Positions 991 to 50,770 of a DNA stretch of 64,000 nt are shown here, piece by piece. The stretch is taken from assembly GCF_030538655.1 (NCBI RefSeq), contig NZ_JAUNTO010000009.1, positions 12,487-76,486 on the forward strand, read 5' to 3'. The DNA is from Paracoccus sp. (in: a-proteobacteria) (GTDB taxonomy: Bacteria; Pseudomonadota; Alphaproteobacteria; Rhodobacterales; Rhodobacteraceae). The translations under genes and the position numbers were made by a program. How positions within the stretch are numbered: the stretch's first letter is position 1; every line of letters starts with the position of its first letter. The notes beneath the pieces are model-generated. The model was not told the DNA's origin, searched no databases, and saw only the letters and a program-made list of their open reading frames with translations.

Positions 991-1084
991 CCGGGGGTCA
1001 CACCCCCATTCGTCGGGGAAAAGGTCCACTGGATCTTTTCCTGACCCTCCTCATCCCGTGGGATATTTAAGGACAGAAGATGCG
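991..1084 (+). repeat. Palindromic repeat family, copy 1 (hairpin CCGGGGGTCACACCCCC, then a 45-nt insert, then tail CCCGTGGGATATTTAAGGACAGAAGATGC)
   Basis: Conserved tail shared with 7 other loci. Lies after the puuD stop and before xdhA. Confidence 0.6.
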
Positions 1085-1144
1085 GCAGGTTGTGTTCGGG
1101 GGGCGATGCGGCAAAGCTGGGCAGGTGATGGAAAGAAGCAGGTC

Positions 1145-2602
1145 ATGGGCGCGCTGAGATTTGTTCTGAATGATGATGACGTGGTGCTGGATCAGGTCGG
1201 CGCGCGCGACATGCTGCTGGATTTTTTGCGGCTGGACCGACGGCTGACCGGCACCAAAGAGGGCTGCGCCGAGGGGGACTGTGGCGCCTGCACCGTGCTG
1301 GTGGGGCGGATCACCGGCGCGGGGCTGGTTTACGAGCCGGTGAACGCCTGCATCCGGCTGCTGGCATCCTGCCATGGCTGCCATATCGTGACGGTTGAAC
1401 ATCTGCGTGGTGCGGGCGGCGGGCTGCATCCGGTGCAGCAGGCGCTGGTGGATCATCATGGCAGTCAGTGCGGGTTTTGCACGCCGGGCTTTGTCATGGC
1501 GCTGTATGCTTGGTGGCTGAGCGGCGCGGGTGGCGGTGAAACCGGGGTCGAGACCGCCTTGCAGGGCAATCTGTGCCGCTGCACCGGCTATGCGCCGATC
1601 ATCCGCGCGGCGCTGACTGTCGCGGCGGCGTGCGGGCAGGATGCGGATGCGCTGGCCAAGGGCCGCGAGTCGATGGCGGCGCGGCTGGCGGCGATCCCGC
1701 GCGGGCGGGTGGATGTGTCGCGCGGTGACGACCGGGCGATCATTCCCGCCGATACCGACGATCTGGCTGCGCTGTTGCTGGATCATCCGCAGGCGACCAT
1801 CGTTGCGGGGGCCACCGATGTCGGGCTGTGGGTGACGAAATTCCTGCGCGACATTTCCCCCGCCATTCTGATCGGCCATCTGCTGAAGGACATCGAGGTC
1901 GGTCCCGACAGTCCCGAGATCCGGCTTGGCGCGGGCGTCACCTATGCCGAGGCGCTGCCGCTGATCCTGCGCGACTTTCCCATGCTGCGGGATTACTGGC
2001 TGCGGATCGGCGGGGCGCAGGTGCGCGCCATGGGCACCATCGGTGGCAATATCGCCAATGGCTCGCCCATTGGTGACACGCCGCCGCTGCTGATGGCGCT
2101 TGGCGCGCAGATCGTGTTGCGGCGGGGTGATATGCGGCGGCGGGTGGCGGTGACGGATTTCTTTATCGACTATGGTCAGCAGGACCGTGCACCGGGCGAG
2201 TTTGTGGAACAGATCATCATCCCCCGGCCCGGCCCGGACGCGCGGCTGGCGGCCTATAAGGTCAGCAAGCGGTCGCATTCGGACATCACCTCGGTTGCGG
2301 CGGGGTTCCGGGTGGATGTGCAGGATGGTGTTGTGACCGATGCCGTGCTGGCCTTTGGCGGCATGGCGGGGGTGCCGAAACGCGCCGCGGCGGCCGAGGC
2401 GGCCCTGCGCGGCCAGCCCTTTGCCGAGGCCGCGTTTCTTGCCGCCGCCGCTGCCATCGCGGGCGATTTCACCCCGATGACCGACATGCGTGCCAGTGCC
2501 GCCTATCGCGCGCAGGTGGCGGCCAATCTGATCCGGCGGTTCTGGCTGGAGCAGTCGGGGCAAGCCATGCCGCCGGTGCGGCTGGAGGAGGTGTTGCCAT
2601 GA
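1145..2602 (+). CDS. xdhA: Xanthine dehydrogenase small subunit (2Fe-2S/FAD), XdhA
   Basis: Cys clusters CAEGDCGACTV and CGFCTPG, plus an FAD-binding region. An upstream ATG at 1082 lies inside a repeat element, so 1145 (or 1106) was preferred as the start. Confidence 0.8.
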   Translation: MGALRFVLNDDDVVLDQVGARDMLLDFLRLDRRLTGTKEGCAEGDCGACTVLVGRITGAGLVYEPVNACIRLLASCHGCHIVTVEHLRGAGGGLHPVQQALVDHHGSQCGFCTPGFVMALYAWWLSGAGGGETGVETALQGNLCRCTGYAPIIRAALTVAAACGQDADALAKGRESMAARLAAIPRGRVDVSRGDDRAIIPADTDDLAALLLDHPQATIVAGATDVGLWVTKFLRDISPAILIGHLLKDIEVGPDSPEIRLGAGVTYAEALPLILRDFPMLRDYWLRIGGAQVRAMGTIGGNIANGSPIGDTPPLLMALGAQIVLRRGDMRRRVAVTDFFIDYGQQDRAPGEFVEQIIIPRPGPDARLAAYKVSKRSHSDITSVAAGFRVDVQDGVVTDAVLAFGGMAGVPKRAAAAEAALRGQPFAEAAFLAAAAAIAGDFTPMTDMRASAAYRAQVAANLIRRFWLEQSGQAMPPVRLEEVLP

Positions 2603-4875: not shown

Positions 4876-5612
4876 TCCGGGTGCGGATCGAGACGGCGCA
4901 GGGGTCCACCCCGCGCGAGGCGGGGGCGGTGATGATCGTCACCACCGATGCCACGCAGGGCAGCATTGGCGGTGGCGCGCTGGAATATATGGCCATCGAC
5001 CGCGCCCGGCAGATGCTGGGACAAGGCGAAACCCGCGCCCGGATGGATGTGCCGTTGGGGCCAGAGATCGGCCAGTGCTGTGGCGGCCGCCTCACCCTGT
5101 CGCTGACCGCCGTCGATGTGATGCCGCCCGAACCGCCGCGCCCCGAGGTGCTGATCTTTGGCGCCGGGCATGTGGGCCGTGCCCTGGCCCGCGCGCTGGC
5201 GCTGTTGCCGCTGGCCCCGGTGTTGATCGACAGCCGCGCCGATGAGTTGGCGCTTGCGCCCGGTCTGCCCGCGCGGCTGACCCCCTTGCCCGAGGCCGAG
5301 ATCCGCGCCGCCCGCCCCGGCAGCGCCGTGGTGATCGCCACCCACGGTCACGCGCTGGATTTTCTGCTGGCGGCCGAGGCGCTGGCCCGTGCCGACCTGC
5401 CTTATATCGGCATGATCGGCAGCGCCACGAAACGCGCCCAGTTCCACCGCTTTGCCCGCGCGCGCGGCATCGACCCGGCCCAACTGACCTGCCCCATCGG
5501 CGCGGGCGGGTCGCCTGACAAACGGCCGGCAGTCATTGCCGCGATGACCGCCGCTGAAATCATCACCACCCTGAACGCGTCTTGCCTGAAGAAATACCCA
5601 TGCGACATCTGA
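4872..5612 (+). CDS. xdhC: Xanthine dehydrogenase accessory/chaperone protein XdhC
   Basis: XdhC/CoxI family N-terminus (TPREAGAVMIV...GSIGGGALE) and a Rossmann-like C-terminus. Translationally coupled to xdhB. Confidence 0.7.
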   Translation: MIRVRIETAQGSTPREAGAVMIVTTDATQGSIGGGALEYMAIDRARQMLGQGETRARMDVPLGPEIGQCCGGRLTLSLTAVDVMPPEPPRPEVLIFGAGHVGRALARALALLPLAPVLIDSRADELALAPGLPARLTPLPEAEIRAARPGSAVVIATHGHALDFLLAAEALARADLPYIGMIGSATKRAQFHRFARARGIDPAQLTCPIGAGGSPDKRPAVIAAMTAAEIITTLNASCLKKYPCDI

Positions 5613-13597: not shown

Positions 13598-13622
13598 AAA
13601 GGGGCCATTTGGGCCCCTTTTT
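13598..13622. terminator. Bidirectional intrinsic terminator hairpin between ndk and the merR-family gene
   Basis: AAAGGGGCC-ATTT-GGGCCCCTTTT: a GC stem flanked by an A-tract and a T-tract. It overlaps the stop codon of the MerR-family gene (13621..13977, minus strand). Confidence 0.5.
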
Positions 13623-15896: not shown

Positions 15897-15958
15897 GGCC
15901 GGACCGGGGGTTTCACACCCCCGGACCCCCGTGGGATATTTGGAAACGAAAGACGAGG
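15897..15958 (+). repeat. Palindromic repeat family, copy 2
   Basis: CCGGGGGTTTCACACCCCCGG hairpin, then ACCCCCGTGGGATATTTGGAAACGAAAGACGAGG. Starts 1 nt after the fabD stop and ends 6 nt before the fabG ATG. Confidence 0.7.
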
Positions 15959-15963: not shown

Positions 15964-16701
15964 ATGTTCGATCTGACAGGTAAGGCGGCGCTGGTAACGG
16001 GCGCTTCGGGTGGGATCGGTGGCGCGATTGCCGAGGCGCTGCATGGGGCCGGAGCGAGCGTGGGCCTGTCGGGCACGCGCGAGGCATCGCTGCGGGAACT
16101 GGCGGATCGGCTGGGCGAGCGGGCCTTTGTGCTGCCCTGCGATCTGTCCGATGCGGCGGCGGTGGATGCGCTGCCCAAGGCGGCGGCCGAGGCCATGGGC
16201 TCGGTCGATATTCTGGTGAACAACGCCGGGATCACCCGCGACAACCTGTTCATGCGCATGTCCGACGAGGAATGGCAGCAGGTTCTGGATATGAACCTGA
16301 CCAGTTCTTTCCGGCTGTGCCGCGCCGTTCTGAAGGGGATGATGCGTGCCCGCTGGGGGCGGATCGTCAATATCACCTCGATCGTGGGGGCGCGCGGCAA
16401 TCCGGGGCAGGCGAACTATGCGGCGGCCAAGGCGGCGTTGCTGGGCATGTCGAAATCACTGGCGGGTGAGGTGGCCAGCCGCAATATCACCGTGAACTGC
16501 GTGGCCCCCGGTTTTATCGGCACCGCCATGACCGACAAGCTGACCGACGATCAGAAGAACAAGATTCTGGTGCAGATCCCTTCGGGCCGGATGGGGACGC
16601 CCGCGGAAATCGCCGCCGCCGTTCTGTTCCTGTCCAGCCCCGAGGCGGGGTATGTTACCGGCACCACGCTGCATGTGAATGGCGGCATGGCGATGATCTG
16701 A
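15964..16701 (+). CDS. fabG: 3-oxoacyl-ACP reductase
   Basis: TGASGGIGGAIA and the catalytic YAAAKAA motif of FabG. Confidence 0.85.
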   Translation: MFDLTGKAALVTGASGGIGGAIAEALHGAGASVGLSGTREASLRELADRLGERAFVLPCDLSDAAAVDALPKAAAEAMGSVDILVNNAGITRDNLFMRMSDEEWQQVLDMNLTSSFRLCRAVLKGMMRARWGRIVNITSIVGARGNPGQANYAAAKAALLGMSKSLAGEVASRNITVNCVAPGFIGTAMTDKLTDDQKNKILVQIPSGRMGTPAEIAAAVLFLSSPEAGYVTGTTLHVNGGMAMI

Positions 16702-16902
16702 GCAAAGACCGGCATTCCGCCTAAAGGGTGAACTGCTTGTCTGAATTGCTTTGTTTAAGGTTGCATGGGGGGCTTGGCTTGCTATATCCCCCGCGTAAGG
16801 CCGAAGGGAAACCGCCCTCGGCTGTCGTTGCTCCGCCGGAGTCCCATGATGGGCAAAGGGGCGGCGCTGTTGGGCGGATGCCCGCGAACATGAGGAAGTG
16901 AC

Positions 16903-17136
16903 ATGAGCGATATCGCTGATCGCGTGAAGAAGATCGTGGTGGAACACCTGGGCGTTGACGAAGACAAGGTGGTTGAAACCGCCTCGTTCATCGATGATCT
17001 GGGTGCGGACAGCCTCGACACGGTTGAGCTGGTCATGGCTTTTGAAGAAGAATTCGGCATCGAGATCCCGGACGATGCAGCCGAGACCATCCAGACCTTT
17101 GGTGATGCGGTGAACTTTATCAAAGGCGCGGTCTGA
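16903..17136 (+). CDS. acpP: Acyl carrier protein
   Basis: 77 aa with the DLGADSLD phosphopantetheine site. Confidence 0.9.
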
Positions 17137-17193
17137 TTTCAGACCCGGCCTTTGGGCAAGATCGCGGCGCTTCCGGTAACGGGGGCGCCGTTT

Positions 17194-17622
17194 TCATTTG
17201 GCGCGGCGGTTTGCGGCCAGCTGCCAGATCAGCCGCAGGGCAAGCGGTGACAGCGCGGCACTGGCGGCAGCTGGCCAAACTGGCCAGTCCAGCGCGGCGA
17301 ACAGCCAGATCGCTGCGGGCAGCATCAGTATCAGCCCCGGCGTGGTTCCCGGCAGGCGATGACCTGCCCGGATCAAGGCGGAGACCTGTGCCAGCGCCCC
17401 GGCAATAGCTGCCGTGGCGATAGGGGCGACTGACAAGGGAAAGAGCATTGCCGCCAGAATCAGTAACGCAGGCAGCAAACGCGACACGGACAGCACGGCG
17501 CGCAGCCTTGTGCGACGATCCGGCGACGGAACCACGACGCCAGAGACTGCGGCCCGCCACCACGCCATTCTGCGGTGTTCTGGATCAAGAGGGCCGCGAT
17601 CAATGTGATGAGCGGCAGCCAC
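17194..17622 (-). CDS. Hypothetical membrane protein
   Basis: Hydrophobic ORF with no recognisable motif. Start uncertain. Confidence 0.3.
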   Translation of the reverse strand: MAAAHHIDRGPLDPEHRRMAWWRAAVSGVVVPSPDRRTRLRAVLSVSRLLPALLILAAMLFPLSVAPIATAAIAGALAQVSALIRAGHRLPGTTPGLILMLPAAIWLFAALDWPVWPAAASAALSPLALRLIWQLAANRRAK

Positions 17623-17628
17623 ATCGCC

Positions 17629-18447
17629 TTATCGGCCCAGTTTTGCGTGAACCTCGTCCAGATCAACCTCGTCCTTGGGCATCTTGTTGTCGGGGTTGTC
17701 GAAATCATAGCGGAACAGCTGGAAATCCTTTTTGTAGATTTCCCAGACAAGATGCTGTGACAGGTCGTCGAAATATTCGCTGACCTTATATGCCCGCTTT
17801 GGCCCGTGCCCTTCAGATTCGTTGAACTTGGGCACTTGTTCCACGTCCATGGTTACGGGGGTATCGGCGGCATCCAGAACGCGCTGCATCCCTTCGTTGA
17901 ACTTTTCGGTGAAGAAAATCTGATCGTAGCGACCGCCATTCACAATGAACGTGGCGATATGGCCCGACATGGCCGACCAGTGGATGTCGGGTTCCATCGG
18001 GCGGCGCCAGCGGATGGTGTCGCGCGCGAACAGCAGAAAGCGGCGGAAGGATTTGATCTGATCAAAGTCAAAGCCGTCATCCGGGCTGCCCACCTCGACC
18101 CCGTAGCGCTGGATCAGTTGCGGCACCAGATTGCCGCGATAGCGGCGGCCGTTGCGCTGAATCCCGGCGATCTTGTCGAAGAACGATGACAGGATGCGGC
18201 TGTAGGGGTTGCGCACGCAGGTGAACACCACGGCGTCATGTGCGCGCACGGCGCGTTCGATCGGCGCTTCGCTTTCGCGGCGTGCCCATTTGTGCAGCCC
18301 CTCCCTGGCATCGTGAATGTCGCCATCAAAATAGCTGCCATGATCGGAGTGGAACATGATTTGACCGATGGACGAACAGGCACATTTCGGGACCACGCGA
18401 TAGATCAGGCTTTCGCTTTCGGTCATCCAGACGCCGGGAAATCCCAT
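17629..18447 (-). CDS. Carbohydrate sulfotransferase (Sulfotransfer_2-like)
   Basis: 5'-PSB-like YRVVPKCACSSI and 3'-PB-like RNPYSRILSSF motifs. Low-GC codon usage. Start chosen at 18447 for its AAAAGG RBS. Confidence 0.6.
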   Translation of the reverse strand: MGFPGVWMTESESLIYRVVPKCACSSIGQIMFHSDHGSYFDGDIHDAREGLHKWARRESEAPIERAVRAHDAVVFTCVRNPYSRILSSFFDKIAGIQRNGRRYRGNLVPQLIQRYGVEVGSPDDGFDFDQIKSFRRFLLFARDTIRWRRPMEPDIHWSAMSGHIATFIVNGGRYDQIFFTEKFNEGMQRVLDAADTPVTMDVEQVPKFNESEGHGPKRAYKVSEYFDDLSQHLVWEIYKKDFQLFRYDFDNPDNKMPKDEVDLDEVHAKLGR

Positions 18448-18587
18448 GTTATTCTGCCTTTTCTGGCTGTTATGCCTGCCGGTGCTTGCCGAGACGGCCA
18501 AAATCATTCACAGACACAAAGCAAATCGGACCGGAATTTTCAACGGGTTCGGTCAAAAGCGGCTCATATTCTTGCGGATGGACCCCT

Positions 18588-20165
18588 ATGGCGCGGATTG
18601 CCTTTATCCTGCTGTGTCACAAGGACCCCGAAGGTATCGTGGCGCAGGCTCGCCGACTGACCGAGACGGGTGATTTTGTTGCGATCCATTTCGACGCTCA
18701 TGCAAAACCGGCGGATTACGCCCATATCCGCGCTGAACTGGCCGATAACCCGCGTGTGACATTCGCGCGCAAGCGGGTGCGCTGTGGCTGGGGCGAATGG
18801 TCGCTGGTTGCCGCCACGATCGAGGCGGTGCGCGTGGCGGCGGCTCATTTTCCGCAGGCCACGCATTTTTATATGCTGTCGGGCGATTGCATGCCGGTGA
18901 AATCAGCCGGGTTCGCCCGCGATCTGCTGGATCGGGATGATTGCGATTATATTGAATCTTTTGACTTTTTCGAAAGCGACTGGATCAAGACCGGGATCAA
19001 GGAAGAACGGTTGATCTATCGCCACTGGTTCAACGAGCGTCGCCAGAAAACCTGGTTCTATCGCAGCATGGAATGGCAGCAGCGCATGGGCTGGTCGCGG
19101 CCCATCCCCGAGGGTTTGCGGATGATGATCGGCAGCCAATGGTGGTGCCTGCGCCGCGAAACGATCGAGAAAATCCTGACCTTCTGCGACAGCCGCCGCG
19201 ACATCCTGCGGTTTTTCGCGACCACATGGATTCCGGACGAGACGTTCTTTCAGACGCTGGTGCCGCATCTGGTGCCGCGCGATCAGATCCGCACCCGGAC
19301 GCTGACCTTTCTGATGTTTACCGATTACGGAATGCCGGTGACGTTTTATAACGATCACTATGACCTGCTGCTGGGGCAGGATTATCTGTTCGCGCGCAAG
19401 ATCAGCCCCGAGGCGCTGGACCTGAAGGAACGGTTGGGCCAGTTATGGCAATCGGGGCGGCGCGACTTTGCCATCTCGGGCGAGGGGCGGGAATTGCACG
19501 GCTTTCTGACCCGGCAGGGGCGGATCGGTCTGCGCTTTGGTCGCCGCGCGTGGGAGGCGTCGGCGCAGGTGGGCAGCGGTAACGTGCTGCATGTCATCCT
19601 GTGCAAAAAATGGCATTTCGCTAAACGGCTGACGCAGGCAATCCGCGACCGGACCGGGATTCCGGCGGTGGATTATCTGTTCAACGAATCCGAGGCGCAT
19701 CTGCCTGATCTGGGCGGGCTGGAACAGGGCTGGGACAAGCGCAACCACCATCGCCGCGCCATGATCGCGATGCTGATGCAGCATTTTGGTGCCGGGCGGC
19801 TGGTGATGTGTCTGGACCCGGCGAATGCGGGGCTTCTGGCCGATCTGGCGGCCGACCGCGCCGATCTGCGGGTGCTGCATATCGACTGTGATTTCAGCGA
19901 CGATTACCTGCGCGGCCATGTGGCCCGCATTGGTCTGGTCGGCCCCGACACCTCGACCGAGCGGATTGATTCGCTGATCCCGGTCATGCGCCGCGATCTG
20001 GCGCATGAGGTCGAAACCCTGCGCGACATGACCTTGCCCCGGTTCGGGATGATTCGCGTAGATGCCGACAGTCAGGCCAATGCCGCCGCACTGGCGCGGT
20101 TTCTGGATGTTTCCGACGAACTGGCGCATGATCTGGCCGAAACGCCGCATCTGTTTGCCGATTGA
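18588..20165 (+). CDS. GT14 (core-2/I-branching)-like glycosyltransferase with an unknown ~290 aa C-terminal domain
   Basis: Branch-family-like N-terminus (LLCHKD...HFD...YMLSGDCMP...WWCL). The C-terminal half has no recognisable motif. Confidence 0.5.
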   Translation: MARIAFILLCHKDPEGIVAQARRLTETGDFVAIHFDAHAKPADYAHIRAELADNPRVTFARKRVRCGWGEWSLVAATIEAVRVAAAHFPQATHFYMLSGDCMPVKSAGFARDLLDRDDCDYIESFDFFESDWIKTGIKEERLIYRHWFNERRQKTWFYRSMEWQQRMGWSRPIPEGLRMMIGSQWWCLRRETIEKILTFCDSRRDILRFFATTWIPDETFFQTLVPHLVPRDQIRTRTLTFLMFTDYGMPVTFYNDHYDLLLGQDYLFARKISPEALDLKERLGQLWQSGRRDFAISGEGRELHGFLTRQGRIGLRFGRRAWEASAQVGSGNVLHVILCKKWHFAKRLTQAIRDRTGIPAVDYLFNESEAHLPDLGGLEQGWDKRNHHRRAMIAMLMQHFGAGRLVMCLDPANAGLLADLAADRADLRVLHIDCDFSDDYLRGHVARIGLVGPDTSTERIDSLIPVMRRDLAHEVETLRDMTLPRFGMIRVDADSQANAAALARFLDVSDELAHDLAETPHLFAD

Positions 20166-20176
20166 AAGGACAGCCT

Positions 20177-20557
20177 ATGACCCCGGCTTATGACGATCAG
20201 AACATCTTTGCCCGTATCCTGCGTGGCGAGATTCCCTGCGACAAGGTGGCTGAAAATGACCACGCACTGGCGTTTCGCGACATCAACCCCGCTGCGCCGG
20301 TGCATGTTCTGGTAATCCCCAAGGGGGCTTATGTCAGCTTTGACGATTTCTGCGCCCGCGCCAGCGAGGCGGAACTGGCCGGTTTTCTGCGCCTCAGCGG
20401 TCAGGTTGCCGAGGCCGAGGGCGTCGCGCTGAAACGCGGCGCGGGTTTTCGCGCGATCACCAACGCCGGGGAACACGGTGTTCAGGAAGTGCCGCATTTC
20501 CATCTGCATATTCTGGGCGGGCGCGGCATGGGGCCGATGTTGACGCGCCGCGACTGA
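20177..20557 (+). CDS. HIT (histidine triad) family nucleotide hydrolase/transferase
   Basis: C-terminal HFHLHILGG histidine triad. The RBS AAAGGA overlaps the upstream stop. Confidence 0.75.
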   Translation: MTPAYDDQNIFARILRGEIPCDKVAENDHALAFRDINPAAPVHVLVIPKGAYVSFDDFCARASEAELAGFLRLSGQVAEAEGVALKRGAGFRAITNAGEHGVQEVPHFHLHILGGRGMGPMLTRRD

Positions 20558-20734
20558 TTGCGTCCCGCGATGCCGGGGGGGCATTCTGCCCCCCCGGCCC
20601 CTGAGGGCGGTTCAGGTCGCAGCAGTGATCCACCATGGATTGCGCTTGCACTCCAATTTGGTTGCAAACGCGCGGTTTTGGTCCGGCATACTGGCCCCCG
20701 GTTGCCCATGCGTCCGGGGGCGGTCCTGTGCAGA

Positions 20735-21973
20735 TCAGCGCCGTTTCAGCATTCTGCCCAACGCCCGCACCGGCGCGGTCAGACGCCACGAGGTGCTGGC
20801 CTGCACTTCTGTCTTATAGGCGGTCAGAGCGCGTTCCTGATCGGCCAGCCGCTTGGTCAGGGTGGCGATGGTCGCGCTGCTGGTTGCACTGTCGCGCTGA
20901 TGTGCGCTTTCCGCCTCGGTCATTTGTTTGCGGATCTGCGCCAGAGTATCGGCTGACTGGCCCTCGATCTGCGCCCTTACCCGCTCCAGCTCTGCTGTCA
21001 GCGCGGCGGTTTCGAAAAAGCGGCTCTGCCGTTCCTGCGCCGCCTGTGCTTTGGCCAGATCTTGATCGGCGCGCGCCTCGTCCAGCGCGGCGGCCAGTTC
21101 GGCCAGCCGTGGATGCGGGTTTCCGGCGGCATAAAGCGCCGCCTGCGCGCGCGCCAGTTCCAGCCCGCGCGCATCCCATGACTGGCGCAGTTGGGTCAGC
21201 TCCTTGCCCATGGCCCGCGCCTTGTCGGCCTGTGTGGTTGCCCGTCGTTCGGCAATTGCGACACGGCGCGCGGTTTCCGTGGCGCTGCCCAGTTGCTGAA
21301 ACATCCAGCAGATCGCCCCGGCGGCCTGACCGTCCTGCGCATTCGCCGCCAGATCGGCCACCGCCGCAGGCAGATCGTCGCCTGCCCCCAACAGCGTCAG
21401 CCCCGCGCCGACATCCAGCCACAGCCCGGCACCCATCTGCGCCGTCAGCCCGCGCGGTGCGCCGACCAGCACCAGCAGCCCGCCGCCGACCAATCCCGCG
21501 CGCCAGTCGCGGATCCGCGCCGCAAGCGCGTCGTTGCTGGCATCGGCATCCAGCGTCACCAGCATCAGATCGGGGCGATCCGGCGCGGGGGCGGGGGCAT
21601 CGCCAACCTGAAGCCGCAGCATCGCGGGATACATCTGTTCGGCGTGGCGCAGCAGCCGGTCGGGCGCGGCGGTCAGCGCGCGGCCCGTGGCCGGGTCGGT
21701 CCAGTGGCCACAGCCGATCACCTGCGCGCCCGCTTCGGCACCCGACGCCTTGTCCATCGCTTGACAGACCGCAAACAGCGCCGCCCCATCGCCGACGTTC
21801 AGCGCCAGCACCCGCCGGGGCCGCAGCCGGTCGGCCAGCCAGAACAGTGTCGGGATCAGCGGCGTGGTTGTGCTGTCGCCCACAAGGCGGGGCTGCCACA
21901 GCAGGGCCGGGGTCCACAGGGCGGCAAGGCCATTCGAGGCGTCGTGATGGTCGGGTTCAAATATGGTCGTCAT
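20735..21973 (-). CDS. Hypothetical protein: methyltransferase-like N-terminal domain plus a long Ala/Gln-rich coiled coil
   Basis: VLALNVGDGAALF resembles a SAM-binding motif I. The C-terminus is heptad-rich and ends TSWRLTAPVRALGR. Confidence 0.4.
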   Translation of the reverse strand: MTTIFEPDHHDASNGLAALWTPALLWQPRLVGDSTTTPLIPTLFWLADRLRPRRVLALNVGDGAALFAVCQAMDKASGAEAGAQVIGCGHWTDPATGRALTAAPDRLLRHAEQMYPAMLRLQVGDAPAPAPDRPDLMLVTLDADASNDALAARIRDWRAGLVGGGLLVLVGAPRGLTAQMGAGLWLDVGAGLTLLGAGDDLPAAVADLAANAQDGQAAGAICWMFQQLGSATETARRVAIAERRATTQADKARAMGKELTQLRQSWDARGLELARAQAALYAAGNPHPRLAELAAALDEARADQDLAKAQAAQERQSRFFETAALTAELERVRAQIEGQSADTLAQIRKQMTEAESAHQRDSATSSATIATLTKRLADQERALTAYKTEVQASTSWRLTAPVRALGRMLKRR

Positions 21974-23469: not shown

Positions 23470-23491
23470 AATCAGCCGGCGCGGGGCGGGA

Positions 23492-30441: not shown

Positions 30442-30492
30442 GCCCTGTCTTTCGTTTATAAATATCCCGGGGGTGCGGGGGCTGGCCCCCGC
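30442..30492 (-). repeat. Palindromic repeat family, copy 3
   Basis: On the minus strand: GCGGGGGCCAGCCCCCGC hairpin, then ACCCCCGGGATATTTATAAACGAAAGACAGGGC. About 95% identical to copy 6. Lies between the dinB stop and the glycan-operon start. Confidence 0.7.
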
Positions 30493-34133: not shown

Positions 34134-34177
34134 AGGGAGTCAGCCTCCGGCGGGGATATTTATCGGACAGAAGATGC
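34134..34177 (+). repeat. Palindromic repeat family, copy 4 (short hairpin GGAGTCAGCCTCC, then CGGGGATATTTATCGGACAGAAGATGC)
   Basis: Lies between the divergent starts of the ABC exporter and the aminotransferase. Confidence 0.55.
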
Positions 34178-36421: not shown

Positions 36422-36472
36422 GCGGGGGCCAGCCCCCGCACCCCCGGGATATTTGGAAACGAAAGACAGAGC
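36422..36472 (+). repeat. Palindromic repeat family, copy 6
   Basis: GCGGGGGCCAGCCCCCGC hairpin, then ACCCCCGGGATATTTGGAAACGAAAGACAGAG. Overlaps the stop codon of the minus-strand reductase gene, upstream of rsmD. Confidence 0.7.
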
Positions 36473-37749: not shown

Positions 37750-38235
37750 ATGACGATCAAGGCGAATGACAAGCTGCCGCAGGGCAAGGTTCTGGTTCTT
37801 GGCGAGGATGGCCCGAAAGAGGTCGCGCTGGCTGATCTGACCAAGGGCCGCGTGGCGATCTTTGGCCTGCCGGGCGCGTTTACCGGCACCTGCACCAACG
37901 CGCATATGCCCAGCTTTATCCGCACTGCCGATGCGTTCCGCGCCAAGGGCATCGACGCGATCCTGTGCCTGACGGTGAACGACCCCTTCGTGGCCGGCGC
38001 ATGGGCCAGGGAAACCGGCGCGGATGCAGCCGGTATTCAGGTGCTGGCCGATGCCGACGGCAGCGTAACCAAGGCGATGGGTCTGAATTTCGACGCCCCG
38101 CCTGCCGGTCTGTATGGCCGCTGCAAACGCTTTGCCGCACTGGCCCGCGACGGCGTGTTCGAGGTGGTGCAGATCGAAGACAGCCCCGGCACCTGTTCCG
38201 TCTCGGCGGGCGAGGCGTTGCTGGAAAATGCCTAA
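37750..38235 (+). CDS. Peroxiredoxin (Prx5-like)
   Basis: GLPGAFTGTCT peroxidatic Cys motif. Confidence 0.75.
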   Translation: MTIKANDKLPQGKVLVLGEDGPKEVALADLTKGRVAIFGLPGAFTGTCTNAHMPSFIRTADAFRAKGIDAILCLTVNDPFVAGAWARETGADAAGIQVLADADGSVTKAMGLNFDAPPAGLYGRCKRFAALARDGVFEVVQIEDSPGTCSVSAGEALLENA

Positions 38236-40688
38236 TGTCCCCGTGGCTTGGCCCGCATCGTCGGGTCGGCCACGGTCGGGTCTTCGGGCCAGGGGTGGCG
38301 CGGGTAACGCCCGCGCATATCCTTGCGCACATCGGCATAGGATGTGGCCCAAAAGCCCGGCAGATCCATTGTGACCTGCACTGGACGTCCCGCCGGGGAC
38401 AGCAGGCTGATCCGCAGGGGGCGCCCACCCACCACCGGATGCCGGGTGACGCCGAACAGTTCCTGCAAACGCACCTCGATCGAGGGATCGGCGTGATCGT
38501 AATCAATCGGCACCTGCCGCCCCAGAGGCGTGGTAAAGGTTGCCGGAACCTCTGATTTCAGCCGCTGTTGCCCGTCCCAGCCGATGCGCGCCAGCAGTGG
38601 CTCGGTCAGGTCCAGCGCGCGCAGATCGGCCCGCGTCCGCGCCTTGCCCAGCCATGGCAGCAGCCAGTCCGCATCAGCCAGCAGACTGTCATCGTCGCAG
38701 GGCGGCAGCCCGTCCGCCAAACCAATCCGTGCCCGCAAACGCGCAGCGCGCGGAATCCAGGGCAGCCCCTCGGCCCGCAAGCCCTCAAACGCCGCCAAAG
38801 CCACCACATCTTCGGGCGCATCCCAGATGCGATCCGACAAGACCAGCGCCCCCAGCCGTTCCCGCACACGGGCCAGAACGCGCCCCTCGCGCCGGGACCA
38901 TTCGCAGACCTCGACCATTTCGATCTGATCTGCAAACAAGGCCCGCAGATCCGCTTCGGCCACAGGCGTCGCCATCCTGACCCGCGCCTCGCGCGCATCG
39001 CCGTCCAGATCAACCGCCACGATAAACCGCTGCCCGGCCAGCGGATCGGCAGCATCCAGAACCGCCCCCTTGCCCCCCGACAGCACAAAGCGGGGATCGT
39101 CCCCCTTGCGCCGCATCCCGATCCGATCCGGATAAGCAAGCGCTGCCATCGTGCCTGCATCTTTTGTCCCTAAATATCCCGCGACAGCCGGGGGGCTGGC
39201 CCCCCGGCTGTCGCGGGACGCAATCAATCGCCGCAGCCGCCGCGCTTCGTCCCGCGCCTGTGCCAATGCGCCATGATCGACGGTCCAGGGATGACGATCC
39301 GCAAAAGCGCGCGCATCGCGCAGCGCCATCAACCGCAAGCCCAGATCGGCGGGCGTGCCGCGCAAAGGGTCGCGCCCCGCCAGCAATGCCGCCAGATCAG
39401 CCGCCCCGGCACCCGCCAGCATCAGCATATGCGCCAGACGCGGATGCAGCGGCAGCCGCGCCATCGCCCGCCCGTGTTCGGTTATCCGCCCGCCCTCGCC
39501 CAAGGCCCCCAGCCCGGCCAGCAACGCGCGCGCCTCGGCCAAAGCTCCTTCGGGCGGTGGGGTCAACAGCGCCAGATCGCCCGGCTCGGCCCCCCACAGC
39601 GCCAGTTCCAGCGCCAGCCCGGCCAGATCGGCCACAGCGATTTCGGGCGGGGCAAAGGCGGGCAGGGCACCTTCCTCGGCCCGTGCCCACATCCGATAGC
39701 ACACCCCTTCGGCCACACGCCCGGCCCGGCCGCGCCGCTGATCCGCCTCGGCCCGGCTGACCCGCTCGGTTACCAACCGCGACATGCCCGAACCGGGGTC
39801 GAACCGCGCCCGCCGCGCGCGGCCTGCGTCCACCACCACCCGCACGCCCGGAATGGTCAGCGAGGTTTCCGCAATCGCCGTCGCCAGCACGATCCGTCGC
39901 CGCGAACCCGGCGGTGCAAGCGCCGCCCGCTGCGCCCGACCGTCCAGCGCGCCATACAGCGGCAGCACCTCGCAGCCCGTGCCGCCCAGCATCCCGGCCA
40001 CACGGCGGATTTCGCCTTCGCCCGGCAGAAACACCAGCACGGTTCCGCCCATATCGGCTGTTTCGGCCACGGCACGGATCACCAGCCGCGCCGCCTCGTC
40101 CGGCAGCCGCGCCCCGGCGTGCAAGGGGCGGTCCAGCCAGCGCGTCTCCACCGGAAAAGCCCGCCCCTGAGACCGCACCACCGGCGCATCATCCAGCAGC
40201 GCGGCGACGGGTTCGGCATCCAGCGTGGCCGACATCACCAGCACCGCCAGATCGGGCCGCAACAAAGCCCGCGCCTGCCAGACCAGCGCCAGCCCCAGAT
40301 CGGCATTCAGGCTGCGTTCGTGAAACTCGTCGAAAATGACGCAGCCCACCCCTTCCAGCGCCGGGTCAGACTGGATCATCCGCGTCAGGATGCCTTCGGT
40401 GACCACCTCGATCCGTGACCCCGCCACCGTCTCGCCGCGCATCCGATAGCCGACACGACCGCCCACCGCTTCGCCCAGACTCTCGGCCAGACGCTCGGCT
40501 GCGGCCCGCGCGGCCAGACGGCGCGGCTCTAGCATGATGATCCGCCCCGGCACCTGATCCAGCAAGGCCAGAGGCACCCGCGTCGTTTTCCCCGCGCCCG
40601 GCGGGGCCACCAGCACGGCACGCCCTGCCGCCGCCACGGCATTGCGCAGCGCGGGCAGAATGTCGTCGATGGGCAGGCGATCCGTCAT
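38232..40688 (-). CDS. hrpB: ATP-dependent RNA helicase HrpB, carrying an in-frame repeat-element insertion
   Basis: DEAH-box helicase motifs (GAGKTT, DEFHER) and an HrpB C-terminal region. Residues ~490-510 are encoded by a copy of the window's palindromic repeat. Confidence 0.8.
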   Translation of the reverse strand: MTDRLPIDDILPALRNAVAAAGRAVLVAPPGAGKTTRVPLALLDQVPGRIIMLEPRRLAARAAAERLAESLGEAVGGRVGYRMRGETVAGSRIEVVTEGILTRMIQSDPALEGVGCVIFDEFHERSLNADLGLALVWQARALLRPDLAVLVMSATLDAEPVAALLDDAPVVRSQGRAFPVETRWLDRPLHAGARLPDEAARLVIRAVAETADMGGTVLVFLPGEGEIRRVAGMLGGTGCEVLPLYGALDGRAQRAALAPPGSRRRIVLATAIAETSLTIPGVRVVVDAGRARRARFDPGSGMSRLVTERVSRAEADQRRGRAGRVAEGVCYRMWARAEEGALPAFAPPEIAVADLAGLALELALWGAEPGDLALLTPPPEGALAEARALLAGLGALGEGGRITEHGRAMARLPLHPRLAHMLMLAGAGAADLAALLAGRDPLRGTPADLGLRLMALRDARAFADRHPWTVDHGALAQARDEARRLRRLIASRDSRGASPPAVAGYLGTKDAGTMAALAYPDRIGMRRKGDDPRFVLSGGKGAVLDAADPLAGQRFIVAVDLDGDAREARVRMATPVAEADLRALFADQIEMVEVCEWSRREGRVLARVRERLGALVLSDRIWDAPEDVVALAAFEGLRAEGLPWIPRAARLRARIGLADGLPPCDDDSLLADADWLLPWLGKARTRADLRALDLTEPLLARIGWDGQQRLKSEVPATFTTPLGRQVPIDYDHADPSIEVRLQELFGVTRHPVVGGRPLRISLLSPAGRPVQVTMDLPGFWATSYADVRKDMRGRYPRHPWPEDPTVADPTMRAKPRGH
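39158..39217 (-). repeat. Palindromic repeat family, copy 5, located inside the hrpB coding sequence in-frame
   Basis: On the minus strand: CGCGACAGCCGGGGGGCCAGCCCCCCGGCTGTCGCG perfect 16-bp stem, then GGATATTTAGGGACAAAAGATGC. Translated as SRDSRGASPPAVAGYLGTKDAG. Confidence 0.65.
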
Positions 40689-47706: not shown

Positions 47707-47783
47707 TCCGCCCTCGCCCCAACGAATGCATGGCCGTCCTTGGGGGCGGCCATTTTCATTGCCGCAACCCGGCCTCATCTTTG

Positions 47784-47826
47784 GTCTGGAAATATCCTCA
47801 GGGGGTCCGGGGGCAGAATGCCCCGG
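47784..47826 (-). repeat. Palindromic repeat family, copy 8 (degenerate, truncated tail)
   Basis: RC reads CCGGGGCATTCTGCCCCCGG hairpin, then ACCCCCTGAGGATATTTCCAGAC. Lies between convergent gene ends. Confidence 0.4.
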
Positions 47827-47926
47827 TGTCGCGGGATGCAACCCATCATGGCGGGCTGGCATCGGTCCGTCACCGCCCCCCTCATGCCGCGATGCCGCAC
47901 ATTGGCTGCGGTCTCGGCAGTCGCCC

Positions 47927-49379: not shown

Positions 49380-50705
49380 ATGACCACCACTCGTTTCGCC
49401 CCTTCGCCCACCGGATACCTGCATATCGGCAACCTCCGGGCGGCGATGTTCAACTATCTGATCGCCCGCAAGGCTGGCGGCACCTTCATCCTGCGGCTGG
49501 ACGATACCGACCGCGAAAGGTCCAAACAGGAATATTCCGACGGAATCATGCGCGATCTGGAATGGCTGGGCCTGACCTGGGACCGGGTTGAGCGGCAATC
49601 CGACCGGCTGGATCGTTATGCCGCCGTGGCCGACGACCTGCGTGTCTCGGGCCGGCTGTATGAGGTGTTCGAGACCCCGACCGAACTGGACCTGAAACGG
49701 AAAAAGCTGCTGAATATGGGCCGCCCGCCGGTTTACGACCGTGCCGGGTTGGGCCTGCCCGATGAGGAAAAGGCCCGGCTGCGCGCCGAGGGGCGCGAAG
49801 GATACTGGCGCTTTCTGCTGGATCAGCAGCGGATCGAATGGGCCGATGGCATCCTGGGCGATATTTCGATTGATGCGGCCTCGGTCAGCGACCCGGTGCT
49901 GATCCGCGCCGACGGGCAGGTGCTGTATACCTTTGCCAGTTCGGTCGATGATGTGGATATGGGGGTGACCGACATCGTGCGCGGTGCCGACCATGTGACC
50001 AACACCGCCACGCAGATTCAGATCATTCAGGCCATCGGCGGCGGCTTGCCGAATTTCGCCCACCATTCATTGCTGACCGGCGCGCAGGGCGAAGAACTGT
50101 CGAAACGTCTTGGCACCCTGTCCTTGCGCGATCTGCGCGCCAATGGCGTCGCACCCGAGGCGCTGTTGTCGCTGATGGCGCGGCTTGGGTCCAGCCAGCC
50201 GGTGGAGTTGCGGATGTCTCTGGAAGAGATCGCCGAAGGCTTTGATCTGTCGCAATTCGGTGCCTCGCCGACGAAATTCGACGCCGAAGACCTGTGGCCG
50301 CTGACCCGCGAACGCAATCAGCGCCTGCCGTTCGAGGCTGTGCGTGATCGCGTGGCCGAACTGGGCGTGCCGGCTGATCTGGCCGAACGGTTCTGGCGCG
50401 TGGCCAGCCACAACATCACCAGGCTGGACGATCTGGCGGGCTGGTGGGAAATCTTCAGCAAGGGCGCCGATCCGGTGATCGACCCCGAAGATGCTGATTT
50501 CGTGGCGCAGGCAATGGCGCTGTTGCCCCAAGGGCCGTTCACCGATGCGACCTGGGGCGAATGGACCGCTGCCGTCAAAGAGGCGACGGGCCGCAAGGGC
50601 AAGGGCCTGTTCATGCCGCTGCGCAAGGCGCTGACGGGGCAGGCACATGGGCCGGAAATGGCCGATGTCATGCCACTGTTGCAGGTGGTGCGGGCGCGCG
50701 GCTGA
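49380..50705 (+). CDS. gltX: Glutamyl-tRNA synthetase
   Basis: FAPSPTGYLHIGNLR (HIGH motif) and KLSKR (KMSKS motif). RBS CAGGAGACG. Confidence 0.85.
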   Translation: MTTTRFAPSPTGYLHIGNLRAAMFNYLIARKAGGTFILRLDDTDRERSKQEYSDGIMRDLEWLGLTWDRVERQSDRLDRYAAVADDLRVSGRLYEVFETPTELDLKRKKLLNMGRPPVYDRAGLGLPDEEKARLRAEGREGYWRFLLDQQRIEWADGILGDISIDAASVSDPVLIRADGQVLYTFASSVDDVDMGVTDIVRGADHVTNTATQIQIIQAIGGGLPNFAHHSLLTGAQGEELSKRLGTLSLRDLRANGVAPEALLSLMARLGSSQPVELRMSLEEIAEGFDLSQFGASPTKFDAEDLWPLTRERNQRLPFEAVRDRVAELGVPADLAERFWRVASHNITRLDDLAGWWEIFSKGADPVIDPEDADFVAQAMALLPQGPFTDATWGEWTAAVKEATGRKGKGLFMPLRKALTGQAHGPEMADVMPLLQVVRARG

Positions 50706-50732
50706 CCGCACCCGCTGCGCCGGATTGCCCTG

Positions 50733-50770
50733 CCGGAGCCTCCGGCGGGGATATTTTACGACAGAAGATG
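50733..50770 (+). repeat. Palindromic repeat family, copy 7
   Basis: CCGGAGCCTCCGG hairpin, then CGGGGATATTTTACGACAGAAGATGC. Lies between the convergent gltX and phosphatase gene ends. Confidence 0.55.

Follow-up and report, generated by a model that had tools for sequence, protein, structure and literature searches.

What is the small element that recurs along this part of a Paracoccus MAG, and is it a copied repeat, a terminator or the remnant of a transposon? The repeat unit is a GC-rich hairpin followed by a fixed GGATATTT-N3-GACAGAAGATG. A preliminary description had listed eight copies in the 64,000-nucleotide stretch analysed here (the window). All eight were found again at the same coordinates and strands, by re-reading and by a position matrix trained solely on 96 copies from other genomes. 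The matrix recovered exactly these eight, seven of them at 33-42 bits; shuffles reached at most 1.8 bits. Copy 4 scored 7.4 bits because its spacer is 4 nt, not 3. GGATATTT was seen 9 times in the window against 0.63 expected, and none of 100 shuffles reached 9. The ninth match (32782) lies inside a CDS without a tail and was dismissed as chance. A degenerate pattern of the 20-nt tail gave 9 matches against 1.2 expected, the eight copies and one other; the latter, at 5580, is again a chance match with no copy there. A ninth, tail-less copy was added (Table 1). With nine copies the density in this Paracoccus genome is about one per 7 kb. All copies in the window except one are intergenic (8/9).

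The unit is modular, non-coding, dispersed and about 35-95 nt long. An optional left arm GATTGCGTCCCGCGA is followed by a G-run/C-run hairpin, an optional and locus-specific second hairpin, a distal head and the tail. The left arm is conserved as (GA)TTGCRTCCCGCGA in copies 6, 7 and 9. The hairpin consists of a run of 4-6 G, a loop and a run of 4-6 C; stems measured 5-11 bp in 115 of 138 copies. The loops are pyrimidine-rich and belong to a small set (CCAG, CGCTG, CTCTG, TTTCACA, TTTTCCA, CTGTCTG, CATTCT and others). The hairpin feet are CC/GG, GC/GC, GT/AC, CT/AG and so on, with GGCCGGA and ACCCCCG as flanks. The distal head is either a C-run (ACCCCCG) or GCCTCCGGCGG; among 112 distinct copies read in context, 38 had head type A and 74 type B. 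The 22-nt tail, GGATATTT-N3-RACRRAAGAYG, is conserved in two blocks, with 3 free positions between them. Its 3' edge is sharp: the information content drops from 1-2.6 bits to below 0.1 bit two bases past AAGA. The two separate tail subtypes described initially proved to be the ends of a single consensus, GGATATTT-N3(4)-RAC[AGC]RAAGAYG. Tail variants such as GGGTATTT, GAAGAAGAAA and CCGCCCGAAG are tolerated, and two-hairpin forms as well as several tail types occur among copies from other genomes.

Table 1. Copies of the repeat in the window and their parts.
Feature	Position	Strand	Details
Copy 1 (composite)	990..1083	+	matrix 39.0 bits
Copy 1 hairpin G5-TCACA-C5	993-1007	+	about 50 nt upstream of tail
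Copy 1 nested unrelated hairpin repeat CGTC-GGGGAAAAGGTCCACTGGATCTTTTCC	1011-1041	+	C-rich spacer after
Copy 1 GGGATATTT	1060-1068	+	
Copy 1 tail AAGGACAGAAGATG	1069-1082	+	
Copy 2, type B	15897..15955	+	matrix 38.0 bits
Copy 2 hairpin CCGGGGG-TTTCACA-CCCCCGG	15904-15924	+	after GGCCGGA; followed by ACCCCCGTG
Copy 2 GGATATTT	15934-15941	+	followed by GGAAACGAAAGACG
Copy 3, type B	30445..30492	-	matrix 36.3 bits
Copy 3 hairpin GCGGGGG-CCAG-CCCCCGC	30492-30475	-	followed by ACCCCCG
Copy 3 GGATATTT	30467-30460	-	followed by ATAAACGAAAGACAG
Copy 4, type A	34134..34176	+	weak stem; matrix 7.4 bits
Copy 4 GCCTCCGGCGG	34143-34153	+	
Copy 4 GGATATTT	34154-34161	+	4-nt spacer, then GGACAGAAGATG
Copy 5, type B	36422..36469	+	matrix 36.6 bits; near-identical to copy 3
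Copy 6	39158..39223	-	inside hrpB ORF 38232-40688 (minus), in frame
Copy 6 left arm TTGCGTCCCGCGA	39223-39211	-	
Copy 6 perfect 19-bp palindrome	39218-39177	-	fold z = -7.7
Copy 6 GGATATTT	39179-39172	-	tail AGGGACAAAAGATG
Copy 7	47776..47841	-	matrix 34.9 bits
Copy 7 left arm TTGCATCCCGCGACA		-	then bulged hairpin CCGGGG-CATTCT-GCCCCCGG
Copy 7 GGATATTT	47797-47790	-	between ACCCCCTGA and CCAGACCAAAGATG
Copy 8, type A	50728..50770	+	matrix 42.2 bits; fold z = -4.1
Copy 9, tail-less	20557..20607	+	fold z = -3.5; without ATATTT tail
Copy 9 left arm ATTGCGTCCCGCGAT	20557-20571	+	overlaps TGA stop
Copy 9 hairpin GCCGGGGGGG-CATTCT-GCCCCCCCGGC	20572-20598	+	followed by CCCTGAGG

Some initial details needed correction. 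It is copies 3 and 5 that are nearly identical (2 core differences), not copies 3 and 6. A perfect stem directly beside the tail was claimed for every copy; this failed for copy 4 (weak stem), copy 7 (bulge) and copy 1 (hairpin too far upstream). Copy 7 had been placed upstream of a gene and actually lies between the convergent DUF6280 and pfkB genes. Copy 9 has the same loop and spacer as copy 7.

The predominance of gene 3' ends and convergent spacers was borne out by the placement counts, for which gene contexts beyond the window were called by a crude GC3-based gene caller: 35 copies were convergent, 41 co-directional (28 sense, 13 antisense) and 6 divergent. A stop codon usually lies 21-83 nt upstream of GGATATTT. 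In the window, copy 8 begins 23 nt past the gltX stop, and its tail TACGACAGAAGATG stops 4 nt short of the stop codon of a convergent phosphatase gene; its 10-bp stem CCCTGCCGGAG-C-CTCCGGCGGGG ends directly at ATATTTT. Copy 3 lies in sense between the minus-strand dinB and a UDP-glucose dehydrogenase gene. Copy 5 is flanked by a ferredoxin-reductase-like gene and an RsmD-like methyltransferase gene; since both are on the minus strand, it is antisense to its neighbours, and TCTTTT follows its hairpin on the minus strand. Copy 2 fills the fabD-fabG spacer, and the GAGG directly after it is the ribosome-binding site of fabG (ATG at 15965). As initially reported, one copy is located between divergent starts (copy 4, ABC exporter gene and class-V aminotransferase gene) and one within a CDS (copy 6, in frame in hrpB, where it encodes the peptide ASRDSRGASPPAVAGYLGTKD). 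Copy 1 separates a urate-oxidase-N-domain gene (stop 976-978) from xdhA. The ATG at 1080-1082 in its tail had been suspected to be a spurious xdhA start, and indeed the ortholog at locus L080 aligns from an ATG at about 1146 instead.

The motif is not limited to these loci; the family is dispersed across the order. A pattern scan matched more than 110 stretches, and about 66 of 80 titles among the matches listed were Paracoccus, Paracoccaceae, Rhodobacterales or unclassified alphaproteobacterial MAGs. The presence in related genomes was confirmed for Paracoccus and further Rhodobacterales genera: Paracoccus, Gemmobacter, Frigidibacter, Rubellimicrobium, Phaeobacter, Ruegeria, Tritonibacter, Leisingera and Cereibacter all carry the family, and finished genomes and plasmids from at least nine further genera contain it. 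In Rfam only a tRNA reached threshold in the window, and at E <= 5 no meaningful overlap with the copies was found; a mir-3017 match on the copy-6 palindrome (E = 4.4) is due to chance. No published description of this repeat family was found in the literature. By comparison with Rfam and the literature the family appears to be new and distinct from known ones.

Is the hairpin maintained although its sequence varies? In single-hairpin type-B copies the foot pairs were complementary in 56/56 and 55/56 cases, realized by 6 dinucleotide combinations; in shuffles the outer foot pair was complementary in 31 of 56 on average and in 40 at most. The G-run and C-run were of equal length (r = 0.91, 56 type-B copies), and in 48 of the 56 the G, C1 and C2 runs were all equal. 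Compensatory change keeps the stem. The folding energy of most copies was no better than that of shuffles of the same composition, with z between 0 and -1.5 for six of nine copies and between -3.5 and -7.7 for copies 6, 8 and 9. Folding energy alone is unexceptional for most copies, and the evidence for the hairpin comes from covariation and recurrence instead. The tail was predicted to be unpaired in most of the nine folds.

The window was compared with a genome about 90% identical. All seven shared sites were kept, and gain or loss of a copy was not seen between these genomes; hence there is no sign of current mobility. The modules at these sites had changed: the hairpin at copies 2 and 5, the tail at copies 2 and 3, and the left arm at copy 7, whose ortholog at L115 has none. 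At copy 6 it is the right arm that differs, conversion having made it exactly complementary to the left arm. Element identities were 79, 51 and 82% versus 87-95% in the flanks. In L115 the copy-3 ortholog has the same hairpin with the tail GGGGACCAAAGATGAG, the copy-4 site retains the element at 89% identity, and the copy-5 site (the one with 51%) carries a different small hairpin plus TATTTGGGCAAACAGGAAG. The copy-9 ortholog in L120 is likewise tail-less. Further, the fabD-fabG spacer is occupied in seven Paracoccus species by six hairpin/loop forms; in all seven it consists of the element plus the fabG ribosome-binding site. Copies 3 and 5 of the window share one hairpin and one tail type. 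At the copy-3 site the relative has this hairpin but a different tail; at the copy-5 site it has another hairpin and a tail that is similar yet degenerate. This pattern indicates exchange between inverted copies 6 kb apart. More generally, that sites are kept while modules are swapped at about 90% identity points to copying between copies. On these comparisons the sites persist over genus-scale times, and within a site modules are replaced by others of one shared repertoire at a rate exceeding the divergence of the flanks. The long positional conservation may equally mean function without mobility.

The copy in hrpB is absent from P. pantotrophus and P. saliphilus HrpB, and HrpB orthologs of 802-810 aa lack the approximately 14-21 residues which the element encodes in most Paracoccus. 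Judged from these orthologs, it is an old in-frame insertion. Between filled and empty hrpB sites no direct repeat was found, a comparison weakened by an allele divergence of about 20-25%. Target-site duplications, a check proposed in the preliminary description, were not found there nor as direct repeats at the borders of the window copies. In P. liaowanqingii putA an antisense copy lies within the annotated CDS, and the annotation runs straight through. In-frame insertion has probably occurred in putA and in a moeB/thiF-like gene, too.

We favour, with a probability of about 0.6, that the family is a REP/BIME/RPE-like mosaic repeat which is modular, located at gene ends, exchanges modules and has a predicted role at mRNA 3' ends. 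On this explanation the Rhodobacterales would be the family's original home, and its numbers would have risen in some Paracoccus lineages to about one copy per 6-7 kb. Copies would formerly have spread by a mechanism which leaves no target duplications; at present gene conversion between copies, together with palindrome-templated repair, would chiefly keep them alike. The repeat probably acts as an mRNA 3'-end module. A hairpin transcribed in sense would give the upstream gene a protected or partly terminating 3' end, and the AU-rich, purine-rich, unpaired tail could be an entry or processing site, with GGAUAUUU as the candidate tail processing region. In front of a downstream gene the tail would be an unstructured leader abutting the ribosome-binding site. 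The overall action might resemble that of REP/BIME elements or the puf intercistronic hairpin.

Might the copies simply be clade-specific intrinsic terminators or attenuators, with a consensus in which the stem ends in GGG before AUAUUU, evolved or kept in place and not copied? The strong bias for gene 3' ends and convergent spacers and the conservation of sites across the genus would fit. With a 5' partner the stem ends at ATATTT, and in the fold of copy 6 it ends at GGGA followed by UAUUU. In a simple terminator scan, which asked for a T-rich run 0-2 nt behind a GC-rich stem on the transcribed strand, copy 8 passed in sense and copy 5 in antisense; yet copies 1-7 failed in sense, in total 8 of 9, the U-tract being short and interrupted. 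Moreover, a terminator does not need the 14 nt past ATATTT, which are conserved up to a sharp edge. Copies in frame (hrpB) and antisense (putA, and 13 of the 41 co-directional ones) argue against it, as does the position right before the fabG ribosome-binding site in the essential fabD-fabG-acpP cluster. Finally, the same hairpin and tail subtypes recur across genera and swap at orthologous sites. We therefore regard plain terminators as unlikely. It is also improbable, in our estimate, that the element is a hairpin-associated cis signal with its own copying machinery. In that reading an enzyme able to recognise the three strands G-run, C-run and C-run, as alternative pairing or a fold-back triplex, would write or renew a head-plus-tail of 29-33 nt at the 3' foot of hairpins already present, many of which would be terminators specific to their locus. 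Such an installing enzyme would account for the equal G, C1 and C2 runs, the unique hairpins between two C-runs and the subtype swapping.

The label MITE/REP-like, given at the outset, holds for the dispersed family; the hallmarks of either class (TIR, TSD, IS, tag, RAYT) were looked for and none was found. A REP/REPIN family would be mobilised by a RAYT, a Y1 HUH enzyme reading hairpin and flank in single-stranded DNA. The conserved tag beside a GC palindrome, REP-like on the opposite strand, the agreement with the imperfect GC-rich palindromes of 20-40 nt that REPs form, the high copy number, the extragenic bias, tandem hairpins (L033, L096) and tail-to-tail inverted pairs at about 10 loci are in line with this. 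However, a GTAG or CGTC tag is absent from the palindrome foot (criteria per PMC3733652), and the pairs do not form a fixed unit, their members being anywhere from 1 to about 150 nt apart. With E. coli RayT as the only query, tblastn gave no match in about 1 Mb of element-centred loci (best E = 1.5) or in the Rhodobacterales replicons of PLSDB, which included Paracoccus/roseobacter chromids of 1.2-2.2 Mb that carry the element. We consider RAYT mobilisation unlikely. A MITE, i.e. a deletion derivative of an insertion sequence that ends with the tail, is very unlikely. The outer edge is sharp, and at L038 a head-to-head pair resembles 35-bp inverted repeats around a 16-nt centre. This is the only such pair; solo half-units without an inverted partner for the tail are the rule, and at no boundary, hrpB included, is a target-site duplication visible. 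Where inverted pairs lie 0.7-0.8 kb apart, the genes between them are thiE and trmB and not transposases; the PLSDB matches all fall in intergenic DNA without annotation, and none has a transposase as its neighbour. The only MITE reported in a comparative-genomics paper on P. yeei, MITEPye1 (159 bp, IS1182-like ends, 4-bp duplications; PMC11578231), is unrelated. The tail might finally be a DNA-level recognition site for a nucleoid, partition, uptake or GTA-related protein with incidental hairpins, as in DUS/USS. Two blocks around 3 free positions look like a two-half-site target, both orientations occur and conservation extends across the order. Yet the tail almost never occurs without a C-run or GCCTCCGGCGG head (128 of 138 GGATATTT occurrences were within element context, in loci picked for the motif), tail-less copies persist, tail variants are tolerated and co-directional spacers show a sense bias. 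We consider this highly improbable.

Rhodobacterales comprise major marine heterotrophs, the roseobacter group, and the models Paracoccus denitrificans and Cereibacter sphaeroides. A genome may hold hundreds of copies of the mosaic repeat, at gene ends, in operons (fabD-fabG-acpP) and even inside proteins. Gene-start annotation is affected because the tail contains an ATG that can be mistaken for a start codon, as at xdhA; the discovery of sRNAs and 3'-UTRs, operon models and MAG assembly may be affected as well. If the repeat shapes transcript ends or translation, it would constitute an overlooked, clade-wide layer of expression. If instead it were a self-copying cis signal, Rhodobacterales would possess a domesticated, order-wide system which writes 3'-end or intercistronic signals. 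Since modules are swapped while the sites stay fixed, the family lends itself as a clean natural system for studying gene conversion and palindrome-templated mutation. As known partners were looked for and none was found, a new mobilising enzyme is a possible lead.

How does the family relate to known systems? With REP/BIME/REPIN elements it shares short GC palindromes with a conserved flank, hundreds of copies, location at gene 3' ends and in convergent spacers, a mosaic build with other motifs, discrete subtypes (like Y/Z1/Z2), inverted pairs and a supposed mRNA 3'-end protection with partial termination. It differs, besides lacking the GTAG/CGTC tag and a detectable RAYT, in a far longer non-palindromic flank (22-33 nt), in the hairpin sequence as the variable part, in the coupled lengths of G-run, C-run and second C-run and in its order-wide distribution in Rhodobacterales. 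Like RPEs, which are alphaproteobacterial palindromes, it is tolerated in frame within conserved protein genes and then inherited (here hrpB in most Paracoccus); yet it differs greatly from them in length and composition and is probably unrelated in sequence, is far shorter than their approximately 100-150 bp, and is mostly intergenic, whereas RPEs lie mostly in genes. The GTAG/CGTC palindromes (Di Nocera et al. 2013) also are small tagged palindromes, with CGTC families common in alphaproteobacteria and frequent dimers. CGTC repeats have stems of 8-9 bp with A/T at the first two positions, loops of 4-5 nt and a CCA tail (PMC3733652), whereas stems here are made up entirely of G and C runs and are followed by a 22-nt tail. 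The main text of PMC3733652 makes no mention of Rhodobacter, Roseobacter, Ruegeria or Dinoroseobacter, and its full text records no Paracoccus occurrence. MITEs (Correia/NEMIS; MITEPye1) are similarly small, non-coding, intergenic and foldable, some subfamilies with promoter-like hexamers, but neither terminal inverted repeats nor target duplications nor a related IS were found here. The stabilising intercistronic hairpins in Rhodobacter operons such as puf, and intrinsic terminators, likewise have a GC hairpin after a cistron, then a stretch rich in A and U. At 65% genomic GC, a 3'-exonuclease block with an RNase E entry site would be expected to look like this. Those structures are single-locus, whereas here we deal with a copied family with a fixed tail and subfamilies.

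Eight intervals of the window have a common layout: a GC-rich inverted repeat followed by a C-rich spacer, GGGATATTT, 3-4 free bases and RAC-R/C-R-AAGA-Y-G. Copy 7 carries AGGATATTT in place of GGGATATTT. The core GGATATTT occurred nine times where 0.63 occurrences are expected at the 65% GC of the window; none of 100 shuffles reached nine. A position matrix trained on 96 copies, all from other genomes, was then run on the window. Seven window copies scored 33-42 bits and, owing to a 4-nt spacer, copy 4 scored 7.4 bits; the rest of the window did not exceed 6 bits and shuffles did not exceed 1.8 bits. Reading of the intervals, enrichment of the core and the foreign-trained matrix thus confirmed the eight copies of the preliminary description. 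A ninth, tail-less copy has left arm, loop and spacer as in copy 7. Some details were corrected. Copy 5, not copy 6, is the near-identical partner of copy 3, and a perfect stem directly beside the tail is not universal, as some stems are imperfect or not adjacent. No Rfam family matched the repeat at gathering or permissive thresholds.

Copies of the repeat and other features of the window, with differences from the syntenic relative S5R_Sa_12
Feature	Position	Strand	Setting	Observation
Copy 1	990-1083	+	between co-directional genes, sense	holds a nested hairpin unrelated to the main family
Copy 2	15897-15955	+	between co-directional genes, sense	loop and tail differ from relative
Copy 3	30445-30492	-	between co-directional genes, sense	tail alone differs from relative
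Copy 4	34134-34176	+	between divergent starts	
Copy 5	36422-36469	+	between co-directional genes, antisense	another small hairpin and a degenerate tail in relative
Copy 6	39158-39223	-	within hrpB	right arm rewritten in window to exact left-arm complement, hrpB frame intact
Copy 7	47776-47841	-	between convergent genes	left arm in window, not in relative
Copy 8	50728-50770	+	between convergent genes	
Copy 9	20557-20607	+	between convergent genes	tail-less
Second hairpin repeat	1011-1041			
Hexamer-containing segment	15912-15940	+		
Additional GGATATTT match	32782		within CDS	without head, without tail
Perfect palindrome	39177-39218		in hrpB frame	19-bp stem; an ordinary imperfect element in closest relative
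Bidirectional terminator	13598-13620		3' of ndk	classical, AAAGGGGCC-ATTTG-GGCCCCTTT
Two blocks, ~100 nt	30312-30447		beside copy 3 tail	absent from syntenic locus L115
COG2908 RNA motif	27787-27817	+		sub-threshold Rfam match, 25.5 bits (gathering 58.7), E = 0.016
tRNA gene	51478-51551	+	~700 nt downstream of copy 8	Rfam, 66.9 bits
Lower-GC region (0.61-0.63)	16000-28000		sulfotransferase and glycosyltransferase genes	probably a variable polysaccharide locus
Non-aligning segment	~23.5-26.3 kb			no alignment to closest relative (L120)

In the 112 distinct copies on which the anatomy is based, the tail is preceded by one of two heads. Type A (38 copies) is GCCTCCGGCGG, often preceded by GCCGGAG or by a locus-specific hairpin; type B (74 copies) reads CCGGGG(G)-loop-CCCC(C)GG-ACCCC(C)G. 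The loops are strand-specific, rich in pyrimidines and few in kind (CCAG, CGCTG, TTTCACA, CTCTG, TTTTCCA, CTGTCTG, CTTCGCG, CATTCT). In many copies a second perfect hairpin, again locus-specific, sits exactly between the first and the distal C-runs. Some copies start 5' with GATTGCGTCCCGCGA, the TCCCG of which is able to pair with CGGGA of GGGATATTT. Beside the main tail the rarer forms ...CCGCCCGAAG and ...GAAGAAGAAA were found, and some species use GGGTATTT. The 3' edge is abrupt, with information content at background two bases past AAGA; the 5' edge is variable. Another hairpin repeat, comprising CGTC-GGGGAAAAGGTCCACTGGATCTTTTCC and its relatives and unrelated to the main family, was seen inside copy 1 and at two loci from other genomes, L025 (~5235-5262) and L107 (reverse strand, near 4200). 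It is nested in main-family elements between first hairpin and distal C-run and may be a CGTC-tagged REP.

Stem pairing was examined by a pair count that a regex anchored on the G-run and the C-run and in which pairing was not assumed. One foot pair was complementary in 56/56 copies and the other in 55/56 (shuffles: mean 31, maximum 40), and six different dinucleotide combinations were seen. The stem is maintained. In 48 of the 56 copies G-run, C-run and distal C-run are equally long; duplication with slippage may account for this, or else alternative pairing or a triplex. As shuffled G/C runs also fold well, folding energy alone does not set six of the nine window copies apart (z = 0 to -1.5); copies 6, 8 and 9 stood out (z = -7.7, -4.1 and -3.5). 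Most of the nine predicted folds leave the tail unpaired.

Related genomes do carry the family, as a genome scan and PLSDB demonstrated for Paracoccus, other Paracoccaceae and further genera of Rhodobacterales. The HrpB and FabD proteins encoded in the window match those of a Paracoccus sp. MAG (contig of 124,943 bp) with 100% identity. With GGGATATTT-N3-4-RACRRAAGAYG at least 110 stretches matched in 185,579 species genomes. Counted by title, about 66 of the 80 listed were Paracoccus, other Paracoccaceae, Rhodobacterales MAGs or unclassified alphaproteobacterial MAGs; other Paracoccaceae among the matches listed were Gemmobacter, Frigidibacter, Albidovulum, Brevirhabdus and Rubellimicrobium. 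The remaining listed matches came from AT-rich organisms, lacked hairpin and C-run context and were discarded as chance matches. An exception is L013, a GC-rich contig binned as Limisphaerales (Verrucomicrobiota), with two typical copies at 5059 and ~5240. This is probably a binning error, possibly horizontal transfer. PLSDB blastn with a 40-nt type-A unit added Phaeobacter, Tritonibacter, Ruegeria, Leisingera, Pontibrevibacter, Tateyamaria, Parasedimentitalea and Cereibacter sphaeroides. All PLSDB matches were located in unannotated DNA or annotation-free records, save one weak Sphingomonas match outside the order. A phage association was rejected: IMG/VR yielded one true copy, and five other hits were chance matches in AT-rich contigs. 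Copy density is 9 per 64 kb in the window and 7 per 42 kb in the closest relative. The 22 kb around hrpB contain two copies each in P. benzoatiresistens and P. marcusii (hrpB copy included), and replicons of P. versutus and P. ferrooxidans have 5-6 places per 1.5-2.2 Mb by blastn, a less sensitive method.

Placement over all loci was determined with a crude GC3-based gene caller, which assigned 35 copies to convergent, 41 to co-directional (28 sense, 13 antisense) and 6 to divergent spacers. By the same calls the upstream stop codon is mostly 21-83 nt 5' of GGATATTT; between convergent genes, the end of the tail is often 1-8 nt short of the opposing stop. Some ten loci have tail-to-tail pairs, each member sense to its own gene; head-to-head pairs are rare. 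Window and all-loci counts agree with the placement originally described, i.e. mostly gene 3' ends and convergent spacers, with one copy between divergent starts and one in a coding sequence. The tail had also been said to create a spurious xdhA start. The longest xdhA ORF begins with GTG at 1058 and has an ATG at 1080, both inside copy 1, and ortholog alignment indeed placed the true start near 1146. In six loci the tail ATG is the longest-ORF start by crude gene calls. At the copy 1 site synteny is broken in the orthologous loci L080 and L086.

In the hexamer-containing segment of copy 2 and wherever else the loop is TTTCACA or TTTTCCA, the loop provides TTCACA or TTTCCA exactly 17 nt 5' of GATATT, a sigma-70-like promoter match. 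The longer spacer of the TTTCACA subfamily adds TG (extended -10). As a general function a sigma-70 promoter was rejected because placement does not favour gene starts and the -35-like hexamer is limited to these two loop subfamilies (10/113 copies).

Copies are also located within reading frames, and hrpB gives evidence of insertion. The sequence RRL..A/P-xx-LSPGAMAALAYPDR is found in HrpB orthologs of 802-810 amino acids, such as those of P. pantotrophus, P. saliphilus and P. alkanivorans. HrpB of most other Paracoccus contains the extra residues ASRD-G(G/R)G(A/P)S(A/P)P..P(P/R)-GYL-G(E/T)(E/K)(E/D). The corresponding DNA spells left arm (GCG TCC CGC GAC), hairpin (GGC CGG GGG GCC AGC CCC CCG) and tail start (GGA TAT TT.); therefore, the extra residues are the translated element. 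The hrpB copy of P. marcusii has kept arm, hairpin and C-run without a tail, and that of P. benzoatiresistens has the tail GAAGAAGAA. In putA on a P. liaowanqingii plasmid the annotation runs straight across an antisense copy. A moeB/thiF-like ORF of P. solventivorans seems to start upstream of its copy.

At fixed sites the element persists and its sequence turns over. In each of seven Paracoccus species, P. pantotrophus among them, an element and the fabG ribosome-binding site fill the 62-70 nt between fabD and fabG, and the tail of the element continues into that site. Six hairpin/loop forms were present there (TTTCACA, CCAG, CTCT twice, TTTTCCA, CGCTG and a two-hairpin form), and the tails differ. 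The ndk-fabD spacer differs between species: P. sanguinis and P. contaminans have an antisense copy there, the window a plain terminator. The window was compared with the S5R_Sa_12 MAG, with which it shares ~90% identity and synteny across 42 kb. Elements occupied 7 of 7 shared sites in both. Element identity was 79%, 51% and 82% versus 87-95% in the flanks by a flank-anchored measure, which gives no value for copies 3, 7 and 9 with their indels in the flanks. The palindrome of copy 6 seems to have arisen recently by a palindrome-templated conversion of several bases that preserved the frame. Copies 3 and 5 of the window have one hairpin and one tail type in common. The relative combines that hairpin with a different tail at the copy-3 site, and at the copy-5 site it has another hairpin with a similar but degenerate tail. 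Therefore, two inverted copies 6 kb apart exchanged sequence. P. solventivorans and P. alkenifer (91% identical) gave the same picture, plus a nested insertion of a second hairpin repeat. The same subtypes were found again in other genera. As the subtype at a site is unstable and the subtypes themselves are stable, copying between copies is required.

A REP mobilised by a RAYT is an unlikely explanation. The placement is known for REPs. With E. coli RayT as the single query, a REP-associated tyrosine transposase, the presence of which the preliminary description proposed to check, had no relative in ~1 Mb of element-centred DNA or in the Rhodobacterales replicons of PLSDB. An IS-derived MITE is distinctly improbable. 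Target duplications, a point raised in the preliminary description, were not visible, and between inverted copies the housekeeping genes thiE and trmB are enclosed, with no IS or autonomous element. A pure terminator is unlikely, if the least so of these alternatives; intrinsic terminators share the placement at gene ends, and in a simple terminator scan copy 8 alone was terminator-like in sense and copy 5 in antisense only. A mere DNA-binding site has the smallest chance of all.

We favour a REP/BIME/RPE-like mosaic repeat family. Presumably it spread in the past; gene conversion and hairpin-templated repair would now maintain uniformity among its copies. The location at transcript 3' ends may be kept by selection or insertion preference. 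In sense orientation the hairpin would most likely block 3' exonucleases or give leaky termination, and the tail, unpaired and rich in AU and purines, would be a likely entry site for RNase E or Hfq. Before a gene, the tail may provide an unstructured leader adjoining the ribosome-binding site. The data establish the existence, anatomy, location, insertion and turnover of the repeat; its copying mechanism and all effects at the RNA level are inferred.

Neither the sequence nor such a repeat in Paracoccus or roseobacters was found in the full texts of 8 million papers or in those read, namely Di Nocera 2013, one on P. yeei genomics, Weinberg 2010 and one on P. denitrificans sRNAs. The elements of the CGTC/GTAG survey of Di Nocera 2013 (PMC3733652) differ from the present repeat, and the sole MITE reported in the P. 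yeei comparative genomics paper (PMC11578231) is 159 bp long and unrelated. Of the proposed 'MITE/REP-like family' the dispersed family and the REP-like placement stand. The tag which defines REPs is absent, and the RAYT of REPs, in the loci and replicons searched, as well as the inverted repeats and duplications which define MITEs were not found; in its behavior the repeat resembles both REPs and RPEs.
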